Shown here one piece after another: positions 15,899-50,796 of a stretch of DNA of 64,000 nt (positions are counted from its first letter, which is position 1; each line of letters begins with the position of its first letter). The notes below the pieces were generated by a model that saw nothing but the letters and a program-made list of their open reading frames with translations, made no database searches and was not told the origin of the DNA. Source of the stretch: a virus; UHGV virus genome UHGV-0042229; one strand, given 5' to 3'. The position numbers and the translations under genes were made by a program.

Positions 15899-15915
15899 AG
15901 ATTTATTAGAGCAAT
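15899..15915 (-). promoter_or_regulatory. C1 operator-like site
   Basis: agatttattagagcaat, 16/17 to reverse-complement consensus; followed on the minus strand by TTGATT-N17-GAAAAT. Confidence 0.6.
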
Positions 15916-17991: not shown

Positions 17992-18008
17992 ATTGCTCTA
18001 ATAAAAAA
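17992..18008 (+). promoter_or_regulatory. C1 operator-like site
   Basis: attgctctaataaaaaa, 14/17. Confidence 0.45.
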
Positions 18009-31542: not shown

Positions 31543-34500
31543 ATACCCAAAACGTCATGAGCTACACCTCGAGTGTCCCCCTTACAAGACACAGAACGTC
31601 TGGCAAAAAGAGGTTCCACTCTGAAGCCACTGTCATGATAAAGCTCTCTGATGTTTGGCGCGCCACTGTTAGTAATGAGAACCTTTGCACCTCGACGATG
31701 AGCATCCGTCAACAGAGACACCAGGCGTTTTTGCTCTTCAAACTTAAAGTCATGACCGGAATAGTTCGTGAATCCCTCTGTATTTGGAAGCGGTTCATAC
31801 GGCGGATCGCAAAAGATGACATCTCCTTCTCCGGCAGCTTCAATCACCGCTGCAAAATCACCGCATACAAACTCAGACCGCCCTTCCGCACCGAGGAAGG
31901 CTTCCATCTCCTGTAATGGGAAATACGGAGTTTTATACTTCCCATAACCGACATTGAACTCACCGGCCTGGTTGTAGCGCGTCAATCCGTTAAAACAATG
32001 TCGGTTCAGGAACAAAAACGCCGCTGCGCGATGTAAATCATCATAGACTTGTTTGTTAAACGCATTCCGTACTGCCAAGTATCCCTCCTGGGTGTTGTAG
32101 TCCAGGAAAAAACGATGTGCCAGAGTGATAAGTGAATGCTCCTCGCGTTGCAGAGTCTTGTAAAAGTTAATCAGGTCAGCATTCACATCATTTAGCAGAT
32201 TTTCCTGGTATCCGGCATTCATGAAGACAGCTCCGCCACCGACGAAAGGTTCAATCAGGCGCTTCCCTTCTGGCAAATAGCGAAAGATTTGTTCCAGAAC
32301 ACCAAATTTTCCACCGGCCCATTTGAATATGGACCGTTCGAATTCTGCCGCTGGTTTAACTTTTCGCTCTTTTGTTTCACTTCCTTCTTTCTGCCGACAT
32401 ACGGCCTTAGTAATCCGATCGCCAATCCAGCGCATTACTGGTATTGCCATACTATTGCCGATCGCTTTGTAACGCGGTCCGTCAGCTGCAAGCATTGCGG
32501 CCTCTTCTTCGCTTAAATCTGGATAGTGATTGTGCAGATATGCCAGTTCATCTGAATTAACTTTTTTACGCTTTTCCGTAGGGATCAACGTATGCCAATC
32601 AGGAAAACCTTGCAGCCTTTCACATTCGACAGGGGTAAGACGGCGCATTCTACCGTCGCCGAGCAATACAATTGGTGCTTCATGGTTACATGTCAAAGTT
32701 GGTGCCGAATTATCGGTTTTTATCTCAGCCCCTCCTTGCCCATGTGCCATGGCAATTATGTTTGTATCATCGCAAGTTCTGATAGCGATGTTTGAAGTAT
32801 ATCTGGTAGTTTCCTTCCCCTCGCCTCTGCTCGGCGCAATATTCCGGCGCACGCCTTCGAACTCAAAAAGTACCGTTGCGGGATCGAGGTCTGTTCGAGC
32901 ACTTGCGACAACAAACACGCGTCGGCGTCGTTGTGCCACTCCGAAGTATTGGGCATCAAGGATTCTCCAGGCCACTTTTCGCTGCGGTCCATAAATACAA
33001 CCACACTGCGGCCACTTTGGAGCATGGCAACCGGTTTTGACATCCCACCGCCAGAATGCGTTACTTTTTCCTGATTCAGGTCGATCACCTGGTTCGAATG
33101 GCGCATCTTCTCCAGCCAATCCGGCAAGGAAACATCCGAAGGCGTTATCTGCCGATGACAAGACTCCTGGGACATTTTCCCAGACGATAACGGCTGGTTT
33201 GAGAAATGACTCAGCCCGTTTGTCGTCAATTGCATTTGCAAGCTCCACATACTTTAAAGTTAGCGCGCCACGCTCATCATCAAGCCCACCACGTAATCCA
33301 GCGATACTGAATGCCTGACAGTTATGGACCACCGCACCATTGAGGATATAGGAATGATCACCTTCGACTTCTATGTTGTATACAGTATCTAGGCCTACCG
33401 ATTTAAACTCTTTGACTGTTCGTAAAAGCATTCCATGAGCCAATCTTGATTTACGTGACAATTTCTGCGGGCAGATTGTTACCTGATAATAATTCCGTTG
33501 ATTTACCACGCGATCCTCAATCACTTTTTTGGGCTTAACTTCAATAAAGCTGACCGAAGAAACATAACCACAAGTCTGTGACAACTCCGCAACGCCCCAA
33601 GCAAGCGCAGGACTAACACTATTAATTCTAAATCCCGCTTTACCACTTGGTGTCCCATCAGTATCAAGATAGCCTTGTAAAAACACATGACGCAATGGAT
33701 GCGACATAACCCATGCAGGGATACGCTTAGCATGGCTTAACTCGCCAAAATGTTCATTAAGCCAATTGGCATAACACGTATCATTCAAGGTTACTTTGAT
33801 GCTCCCTCGGATTTCGCTTGCCACGGAAAATATGTTTTCTGGTATGCGGCAATGAAACTTTCTCAATTTCTGGCAATTTATGCCAAAAACAACCGCCTTC
33901 TTAGATTTACCTCTCCATCTCCTAATATATCCATCGCCAACATAAGCGCCCGCAAGATACATAGCCTGTTCTTCAGACAAGAACCGAGAACAAATATCTG
34001 GAGATGCAATATTGAAATTAGTTAGAGCACACCATTGATATCCCGGCATATCACATGCTGCTCGCCATTCCGGTTCAGACAACAACTCTCTCTTAAAATA
34101 TGTGCCATTTTTCCGGGTGTTTTGGGCTTTCCACCGAACCGCCAGGAAGGGATGGTCATTGGTTGTTCTTATACCTAAAGGCTGCCCAACGGCATTAAGT
34201 AACCCCGTATTAGCTATTTTTGAACCAACTCTTTTTACTTGTTGTAACCGCCCGAGATGACTGACTACGTAATCGCCAGGGCAAACATCTTCTATTGGTT
34301 TATAACCATTTTTACAAAGAACCATATGCCCCGCGGTAAAACATGGTGTCCCTCCCACCAGCACATCAGGGGCTTCAATTTCTCCAGCCTGGACTTTTTG
34401 GGCGAGTTTTGTCATGTCGCCAAGGTTGGCGACATGGGGCCAGTGGTACGCAAGAACGGCAGATGGAAAAGGCTCGATTTCAGCAAACCACGCCGGACGC

Positions 34501-34574
34501 ATACCCAACGGTTCCCAGGCAATACTCGCGGCTTCAATTCCACTGCAAACAGATCCATAGCACAGCTCTTTCAC
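31533..34574 (-). CDS. dmt: Bifunctional DNA methyltransferase Dmt (C5-cytosine MTase N-domain + Dam-like N6-adenine MTase C-domain), interrupted by an in-frame intein; 1013 codons
   Basis: N-domain C5-MTase motifs (VLVGGTP|CQAFSIAG split, [16 protein letters not shown]); C-domain Dam-like ([26 protein letters not shown]). GTG start overlaps upstream gene stop. Confidence 0.85.
33321..34343 (-). mobile_element. Intein (341 codons) with LAGLIDADG homing-endonuclease domain, inserted in the PCQ motif of the Dmt C5-MTase domain
   Basis: Begins [13 protein letters not shown]... (block A Cys1), contains IRTTNDH (block B TxxH), LAGLIDADG-like [13 protein letters not shown] and [13 protein letters not shown], ends ...[11 protein letters not shown] followed by +1 Cys of CQAFSIAG. 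Residues 78-418 of the ORF; in frame, no stops. Confidence 0.8.
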
Positions 34575-35476: not shown

Positions 35477-35825
35477 GTTGTAACCCTTGAATATCAACCA
35501 CAGAAAGCTCGTCTTTGTAGAAAAAGGCCAGGTTGTGGCACCCCCTCGTTTGAGCGTATGAGCTGGGACCAATTTCGTTCTTCCAGACAAATGGCTTCAA
35601 ATCCGTACGGCGAAGCATAAAAACGCGATTTGTTCCGCTCTGATTCCCAATGAGGCAAAAGCCTTCTTTCACCTTGATAGCCTGCAAGTTGTCGAGTTCA
35701 CCGCTGGTTACACGGCTATCGAACTCCTTGCGGCTTATTAGCTCCATCTGCATCTGACGACTCCAAACAAATGCCCATTGAAGGGCGATGGCTGAATGGT
35801 ACCGAAAATACGACATAAAAAACAA
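35469..35825 (-). CDS. Hypothetical protein (up to 118 aa) between operator and rdgC-like gene
   Basis: ORF track; start uncertain (several in-frame Met). Confidence 0.4.
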
Positions 35826-35841
35826 TATTTATTAGAGCAAT
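35825..35841 (-). promoter_or_regulatory. C1 operator-like site upstream of the rdgC-dmt operon
   Basis: atatttattagagcaat, 16/17 to reverse-complement consensus. Confidence 0.6.
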
Positions 35842-50779: not shown

Positions 50780-50796
50780 AAATTTATTAGAGCAAA
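50780..50796 (-). promoter_or_regulatory. C1 operator-like site (Op53-like) upstream of kilA-repL
   Basis: aaatttattagagcaaa, 16/17 to reverse-complement consensus. Confidence 0.65.

Follow-up and report, generated by a model that had tools for sequence, protein, structure and literature searches.

A predicted class-1 intein with a LAGLIDADG homing endonuclease interrupts the catalytic Pro-Cys motif of the Dmt methyltransferase in P1-like phage-plasmids

Introduction

What are 341 in-frame residues doing inside the catalytic motif of a phage DNA methyltransferase? The question is raised by the dmt gene of UHGV virus genome UHGV-0042229, a stretch of 64,000 nucleotides (nt) that is called the window throughout this study. 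The initial annotation, made by a model from the sequence without database searches, had described a 1013-codon dmt open reading frame (ORF) in which motif IV of the C5-cytosine methyltransferase domain is split by an intein of 341 amino acids (aa) carrying a LAGLIDADG endonuclease, between the flanks VLVGGTP and CQAFSIAG; this layout matches the translation of the minus strand exactly. The Cys of the motif IV Pro-Cys dipeptide is the catalytic nucleophile of C5-methyltransferases, and inteins with LAGLIDADG endonucleases are textbook elements. Few phages are used more in bacterial genetics than P1; in Enterobacteriaceae, P1-like phage-plasmids commonly carry resistance genes; and Escherichia coli is the standard host for intein work. 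The gene is organized as follows:

31533..34574, minus strand: dmt ORF, 1013-aa precursor with a GTG start (program-made ORF list)
34344..34574, minus strand: N-extein, aa 1-77, ending in ...VLVGGTP (alignment with the intein-less P7 Dam and P1 Dmt)
33321..34343, minus strand: intein, 341 aa, Cys1 to His340-Asn341, between Pro77 and Cys419 of Dmt
33318..33320, minus strand: TGT codon of the +1 Cys, both splice-junction nucleophile and catalytic Cys of motif IV
31536..33320, minus strand: C-extein, aa 419-1013, the remaining C5-methyltransferase followed by the Dam domain (motif positions, Pfam, NCBIfam)

Results

Motifs and fold of the insert

The reverse complement of 33321-34343 is stop-free and encodes exactly 341 residues, from CFTAGHMVL to ILNGAVVHN, preceded by ...PDVLVGGTP and followed by CQAFSIAG; the plus-strand translation of the same interval contains many stops. 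The G+C content of the insert is 42.6%, compared with 54.5% and 48.5% for the exteins. The intein motifs listed in the initial annotation (Cys1, a TxxH block, two LAGLIDADG-like motifs, a terminal HN, and a +1 Cys) are all where it had placed them, and both LAGLIDADG motifs end in an acidic residue followed by Gly (D137-G138 and D229-G230):

34014..34343, minus strand: N-terminal splicing (Hint) half; Hint_2 matches aa 77-126, boundary approximate
34326-34343, minus strand: block A, CFTAGH, containing Cys1
34146-34166, minus strand: block B, TTNDHPF with TxxH; TTNDH is intein residues 60-64, with T61 and H64
33459..33986, minus strand: LAGLIDADG homing-endonuclease domain (LAGLIDADG_3 and structural model), boundaries approximate
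33930-33956, minus strand: LAGLIDADG motif 1, LAGAYVGDG, intein residues 130-138
33717-33734, minus strand: HAKRIP with the conserved Lys206 (located in the sequence)
33654-33680, minus strand: LAGLIDADG motif 2, LQGYLDTDG, intein residues 222-230
33321..33458, minus strand: C-terminal splicing half (TIGR01443 and a phmmer match to the Spl DnaX mini-intein)
33348-33383, minus strand: block F, intein residues 321-332
33321-33341, minus strand: block G, NGAVVHN, with HN as intein residues 340-341

Searches with Hint and LAGLIDADG profiles, one of the checks by which the intein proposal was to stand or fall, gave three matches above their cut-offs: Pfam LAGLIDADG_3 at 33.0 bits (cut-off 22.5), NCBIfam TIGR01443, the intein C-terminal splicing region, at 28.9 bits (cut-off 15.6), and a borderline Pfam Hint_2 at 28.5 bits (cut-off 28.4). 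Pfam Intein_splicing matched below threshold, and NCBIfam also returned weak matches to intein-containing equivalogs (RNR, GyrA, RFC, and DnaB). An AlphaFold2 model of the intein, built on an 11-sequence alignment, reached a mean predicted local distance difference test (pLDDT) of 92.1 and a predicted template modeling score (pTM) of 0.89. In this model, beta-rich N- and C-terminal parts enclose an alpha/beta core, with a beta-strand region at residues 1-107 and an alpha/beta region at 124-292. When it was compared with the PDB by Foldseek, the top of the list was held by endonuclease-containing inteins only (PI-SceI, 3e-17; TliVMA, 2e-16; then PhoVMA, PI-PfuI, and PI-TkoII), the matches to intein crystal structures having a probability of 1.00; the free LAGLIDADG enzymes I-SceI, I-AniI, and I-OnuI followed below, together with mini-inteins and WhiA. 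A sequence search of PDB chains (phmmer) returned a single weak match, to the C-terminus of the Spl DnaX mini-intein. Because the profile matches, the AlphaFold2 model, and the fold matches agree, the insert is almost certainly a class-1 intein with a two-motif LAGLIDADG endonuclease. An insertion sequence (IS) element or another DNA insertion was ruled out, the insert being in frame, stop-free, and bounded by intein splice junctions.

The best structural matches, at Foldseek E values from 3e-17 to 2e-9, are PI-SceI (Sce VMA1), the archaeal VMA inteins, PI-PfuI, and PI-TkoII. Like the dmt insert, these inteins have a LAGLIDADG endonuclease set within a Hint splicing domain, the residues Cys1, TxxH, terminal HN, and +1 Cys, and an insertion point at a conserved catalytic site. 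They differ from it in sequence (12-17% identity) and in size (360-540 aa versus 341 aa). Moreover, the host of the dmt intein is a DNA methyltransferase of a bacterial phage-plasmid, and the activities of the element are predicted ones.

The host methyltransferase with and without the insert

The Dmt precursor combines a C5-cytosine methyltransferase domain, which the intein splits, with a Dam-type N6-adenine methyltransferase fused to it. Pfam DNA_methylase (PF00145) matched in split stretches (1.5e-29), MethyltransfD12 matched at aa 752-984 (4.6e-56), and NCBIfam dam TIGR00571 matched at 1e-73. We aligned the window Dmt with four annotated alleles, namely, P7 Dam, reference P1 Dmt, RCS47, and OP279344. 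P7 Dam (672 aa) and reference P1 Dmt (754 aa) are colinear with the window protein except for a clean 341-residue gap between P77 and C419, so that the two exteins join exactly at the predicted insertion point; in the RCS47 and OP279344 alleles, the 341 residues are present as in the window. The intein-less alleles read GGTP (WGTP in the P1 reference) directly into CQAFSIAG. At the DNA level, the empty site is GGTACGCCT followed immediately by TGTCAGGCATTC in P7 and P1, and another form reads GGAACACCT followed by TGTCAGGC. Because the P7 and P1 alleles run across the site without the gap residues, the insert is not a normal part of Dmt. The possibility that homologues keep these 341 residues as an ordinary conserved domain, which would have spoken against an intein, was thus ruled out by abundant exact empty alleles.

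Once the insert is removed, motifs I, IV (PC), VI (ENV), VIII (QxRxR), IX, and X (GN) of the C5-methyltransferase are complete and in order, the last codon of the N-extein being the Pro of the motif IV PC dipeptide. The Dam domain lies in the C-extein, more than 300 residues downstream of the insertion site. Motifs of the host domains were located in the sequence, the Dam domain by Pfam and NCBIfam:

34533-34556, minus strand: motif I, GSVCSGIE, in the N-extein
33165-33182, minus strand: ENV motif, C-extein
32913-32933, minus strand: QRRRRVF motif, C-extein
~32655-32828, minus strand: variable specificity region, Dmt aa ~583-640 (allele alignment)
32598-32645, minus strand: motif IX, C-extein
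32436-32459, minus strand: GN motif (GNSMAIPV)
~31548-32339, minus strand: Dam domain
31797-31808, minus strand: DPPY of the Dam domain

This arrangement bears directly on enzyme activity. Because 341 residues separate the Pro from the catalytic Cys, which is itself the +1 residue, the C5 domain would very probably be inactive until splicing, and the Dam domain would probably work with or without it. A different reading therefore has to be weighed, in which the insert is an intein by descent that has lost splicing or splices poorly, so that a permanent insertion kills the C5 domain and is tolerated through the Dam domain and the Dam of E. coli. Several facts are in keeping with such a loss: dmt can be dispensed with in Dam+ hosts (EcoSal review PMC12707154), it was scored non-essential by CRISPR interference (CRISPRi) in P1vir (PMC10695390), and the C5 activity of Dmt is annotated as "perhaps" only, which means that selection for splicing could be weak. 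Block F, moreover, has Asn in place of the common Asp. The intact C5 motifs of the exteins speak on the other side, and the intein copies themselves, both within and beyond P1-like elements, add further evidence, as described below.

Relatives of the insert in other methyltransferases

A search of 5.8 billion proteins found relatives of the intein that are 47-52% identical in other PF00145 proteins and 29-32% identical in Actinobacteria and Alphaproteobacteria. HMMER over 1.84 billion cluster representatives gave 4580 matches, 197 of them at E<1e-30, and most place the intein 70-90 residues from the protein N-terminus. Among the best ~150 relatives, 121 have junctions that read P/C...HN/C, with a C-extein starting in CQxFSxAG or a variant close to it. 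Judging from these sequences, the Pro-Cys junction within motif IV of C5-methyltransferases is a major intein insertion site in wide use.

Across the family alignment, Cys1, T61, H64, G138, K206, G230, N341, V321, N323, and V339 are invariant, and the LAGLIDADG residues D137 and D229 are nearly so. Splicing residues are therefore conserved across a family that has diverged to 30-57% identity, which is not what a loss of splicing would predict. The block F Asn (VYN), found where many class-1 inteins have Asp, is itself invariant in the family, and this argues for its function, short of proof.

Relatives were also found by tblastn within genes annotated as cytosine or DNA methyltransferase in named phages, i.e., Mannheimia phage vB_MhS_587AP2 (47.7%), Propionibacterium phage B22, Lactobacillus phage Nyseid, and Pseudomonas phage Lana, as well as in the 350-kb jumbo coliphages ph0011, UE-S1, A4, and TH47 and, at ~26.6% identity (E ~1e-14), in the "DNA methylase" genes of cluster F mycobacteriophages. 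These other C5-methyltransferase inteins (Mannheimia, B22, Nyseid, jumbo coliphages, and metagenomic proteins) are homologous to that of dmt, with 27-57% identity. The metagenomic and Mannheimia proteins examined share its P/C insertion point followed by CQxFSxAG; for the named phages, the likeness is a match lying within methyltransferase-annotated genes, as known from annotation and match position. Unlike Dmt, most of these hosts have no Dam fusion, and the elements are known from database entries whose most specific names are "Hint domain-containing protein" and "DOD-type homing endonuclease"; for ten relatives whose names were looked up, little came back other than the former name in Mannheimia.

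In the nearest relatives, the exteins are 50-76% identical to Dmt and the inteins 37-57%, the inteins being more diverged. P1-group inteins form a tight cluster of their own (at least 95% identity), and the searches found no near-identical donor outside the P1 group, the closest non-P1 intein being 57% identical. A recent transfer from a close donor was accordingly dropped as an explanation.

A side observation concerns the prophages of Mannheimia haemolytica (578 contigs), in which a homologous intein (47% identity) precedes a C-extein that ends right behind the +1 Cys (HN/CQSDKGGT...stop). The record of Mannheimia phage vB_MhS_587AP2 (KP137435, 27587-28606) annotates two separate coding sequences. 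This may be a case of a disrupted host gene with a still-intact intein.

Distribution and flanking markers in P1-like elements

Intein DNA is present at 95% identity or more in 133 PLSDB plasmids. Occupancy was determined with a 120-nt "empty site" query, a contiguous match being counted as empty and a split match as occupied. This survey for intein-minus alleles found the site empty in 153 of 278 PLSDB records and in 119 of the 263 complete E. coli genomes that hold it, and split by the insert in the remainder. Intein occupancy in P1-like elements is therefore about one half.

For the integrity and marker analyses, P1-like loci with both flanks were taken from IMG/VR. The reading frame is open, without stop or frameshift, in each of the 26 intein copies examined, and the copies contain 31 segregating sites (15 synonymous and 16 non-synonymous), for a ratio of non-synonymous to synonymous polymorphism (pN/pS) of ~0.30, a value that rests on few events at this low diversity. 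The catalytic residues C1, T61, H64, H340, N341, and the +1 Cys are invariant in these copies, all of which also keep both LAGLIDADG acidic residues and the conserved Lys. Decay of an intein that no longer splices should first show as disrupted copies, and none was found among the P1-like copies examined. Together with the invariant splicing residues and the pN/pS, this makes a non-splicing remnant improbable, and we favor an intein that still splices.

Whether the endonuclease is still at work is a separate question, on which the alleles at the empty and occupied sites bear. The intein occurs in more than one specificity background: the 595-aa C-extein is found in 14 occupied and 16 empty alleles and the 677-aa C-extein in 9 occupied and 33 empty alleles, so that both main specificity-domain alleles exist with and without it. 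The codon of Pro(-1) is CCA in 24/24 occupied and CCT in 43/43 empty alleles (Fisher 1e-18). Synonymous flank markers at -3, -21, -47, -103, and -117 and from +24 to +160 are strongly associated with the intein, an association that is lost farther out than ~-250 and ~+170 nt. Several markers on the N side, among them the CTGGTGGGAGGG haplotype of the window, occur in occupied alleles only. Linked markers that fade within ~250 nt match what homing with short-tract co-conversion predicts. No empty site in PLSDB carries the intein-linked CCA, and precise intein loss is for this reason not seen.

One haplotype stands out at the junction. In the last 15 nt of the N-extein (34344-34358, minus strand), the window reads CTGGTGGGAGGGACACCA versus the common CTCGTCGGGGGAACACCA, with four synonymous third-position differences. 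The CTGGTGGGAGGGACACCA haplotype is found in 5 of 24 intein-carrying alleles and in no empty allele, and it may be a remnant of the original donor extein.

These patterns have to be set against a splicing intein whose endonuclease is inactive and whose patchy distribution comes from vertical descent and general homologous recombination. P1-like genomes are mosaic, and the adjoining specificity region assorts freely; plain recombination would give markers that fade with distance just as well, and the single junction marker (CCA) shared by all occupied alleles is consistent with a single origin. An idle endonuclease fits less well with the LAGLIDADG acidic residues and Lys kept in all P1-like copies and in nearly all family members, with an endonuclease domain that folds confidently in the model, or with an occupancy of ~50% on several flank and specificity backgrounds, as expected of a still-invading element. 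In the homing cycle, endonuclease domains that have become useless usually degrade or are deleted, giving rise to mini-inteins. We thus regard an inactive endonuclease as unlikely, and the evidence leans, by a modest degree, toward an intein endonuclease that would still be active.

The same distribution bears on a possible co-option of the intein as a post-translational switch, in which conditional splicing (e.g., redox control through Cys1 and Cys+1) would gate cytosine methylation in lytic growth. The position of the intein on the catalytic residue would make activity strictly dependent on splicing; the family is kept at one site in many methyltransferases; and other inteins, that of RadA among them, are documented to splice conditionally (PMC4513877). 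Half of the P1-like elements lack the intein, however, which means that it is not needed, and insertion at a conserved catalytic site is an ordinary result of endonuclease target choice. Such a switch is very improbable.

Discussion

Altogether, our analysis makes it highly probable that a canonical class-1 intein with a LAGLIDADG endonuclease lies at the motif IV P/C junction of the bifunctional Dmt. For splicing taken by itself, the conserved junction residues make it likely that the intein excises. Several points weigh against this interpretation. The Hint_2 profile only just reaches its cut-off, and block F has Asn where Asp is usual. The low diversity within P1-like elements (31 segregating sites) leaves the pN/pS resting on few events, and the gradient of flank markers is equally expected from common descent and ordinary homologous recombination. 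A near-identical donor outside the P1 group was not found by the searches, and the records of both P1 and P7 annotate the C5 activity of Dmt as "perhaps" only.

The timing of the proposed events depends on the regulation of the operon. The window dmt shares 98% identity with dmt genes annotated in P1-like phages and follows hrdC, and C1 operators lie in the window; by these features the window is a P1-like element. With the 17-nt P1 C1-operator consensus and up to 2 mismatches allowed, seven matches were found in the window versus 0 expected by chance (1028-1044, 1111-1127, 15899-15915, 17992-18008, 31526-31542, 35825-35841, and 50780-50796), which fits a complete P1-type immunity regulon across the window. 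Two of them lie around the operon:

35825..35841, minus strand: C1 repressor operator Odmt, identical to the P1 operator and located upstream of the uhr-hrdC-dmt operon
31526-31542: second C1 operator with 1 mismatch, overlapping the dmt stop codon

Separate expression of the Dam domain would gain support from the promoter LPdam2 that is annotated in P7, but no exact copy of it was found in the window dmt.

We propose a model based on the following: (i) because the uhr-hrdC-dmt operon would be C1-repressed as in P1, the 1013-aa precursor, and with it the endonuclease, would be made in lytic growth; (ii) Cys1 would start an N-S acyl shift, attack by the +1 Cys would give a branched intermediate, and cyclization of Asn341 would release the 341-aa intein; (iii) the ligated product would be a 672-aa bifunctional Dmt in which the restored Pro-Cys would give an active C5-methyltransferase; and (iv) in P1-like genomes that reside in the same cell or co-infect it, the free intein would cut empty dmt alleles within the sequence coding for motif IV, and repair from the occupied allele would copy the intein with a short stretch of flanking extein, i.e., homing. 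The furthest-reaching reading, with an active intein and endonuclease invading intein-less dmt genes when P1-like elements meet in lytic growth and, by its place on the catalytic Cys, making cytosine methylation dependent on splicing, is put forward tentatively, and we would place it somewhat below an even chance.

Inteins in phage methylases are not new in themselves. Mycobacteriophages carry inteins in the DNA methylases DNMT-1/2 (Kelley et al. 2016, PMC5050341), and a 2025 survey counts C-5 methylases among the previously reported intein hosts of actinobacteriophages (bioRxiv 10.1101/2025.01.02.630785). Like the dmt intein, these are phage-borne, have a LAGLIDADG endonuclease, and lie inside DNA methyltransferase genes; unlike it, they are distant in sequence and belong to phages of a different bacterial phylum, and the mycobacteriophage hosts are described as N6/N4 methylases (PMC5050341) in contrast to the C5 domain of Dmt. 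A text search of these actinobacteriophage papers found no mention of P1, dmt, or enterobacterial phage-plasmids. Full-text literature searches found no described intein in P1, P7, RCS47, or any P1-like dmt, in agreement with the initial annotation, which knew of none; what they returned instead were papers on engineered toxin-intein fusions, uses of IMPACT purification, and unrelated inteins. GenBank and RefSeq name the gene "Dmt," "DNA methyltransferase," or "Dam family ... methyltransferase," and only truncated copies are called "Hint domain-containing protein." The dmt intein is thus apparently undescribed, inteins in phage C-5 methylases are already reported, and nothing here is mechanistically new: our understanding of how inteins work is unchanged by the finding.

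Because an intact intein is present in about half of P1-like elements and the gene is called simply a Dam-family methyltransferase, the size and domain layout predicted for the Dmt product are incorrect in hundreds of records. The locus also offers a tractable natural system in its native E. coli host, with both allele types at hand and easy genetics, in which homing, the length of co-conversion tracts, and the cost or benefit of splicing-dependent methylation are measurable. If the intein is indeed active and invading, dmt would allow homing, co-conversion, and DNA modification gated by splicing to be studied in a system native to E. coli.

Additional observations at the dmt locus

Between motifs VIII and IX of the C5 domain, where the target-recognition domain is expected, lies a cassette with at least five length classes in P1-like elements (C-exteins of 595, 638, 677, 730, and 785 aa), and the flanks of this cassette are at least 95% identical. 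No second intein was found in the longer dmt alleles (754, 808, and 863 aa), whose extra length is variable specificity region. The cassette suggests swapping of methylation specificity, perhaps under host restriction pressure, and cytosine methylation by Dmt would be a likely anti-restriction function with swappable specificity domains.

At codon 74, the Dmt of reference P1 (NC_005856) reads VLVWGTPC, versus VLVGGTPC in the window, P7, RCS47, and OP279344. The equivalent position in the window (34353-34355, minus strand) is invariant among the 67 IMG/VR alleles compared. The G74W change is only three residues from the catalytic Cys, on its N-terminal side, and could be a mutation of the laboratory strain that affects C5 activity.

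In the P1vir CRISPRi table (PMC10695390), dmt is listed as two entries, "dmt-B" and "dmt-A," each non-essential. The genome OP279344.1 comes from a laboratory stock of P1vir (bioRxiv 10.1101/2022.09.09.507302) and is recorded as "Escherichia phage P1 isolate del res del mod"; it carries the intein and the short specificity allele, whereas reference P1 is intein-less. Upstream of dmt, OP279344 and reference P1 differ at 22 of 1500 nt (~1.5%), and by this comparison the OP279344 P1vir is not simply of the reference P1 lineage in the dmt region.

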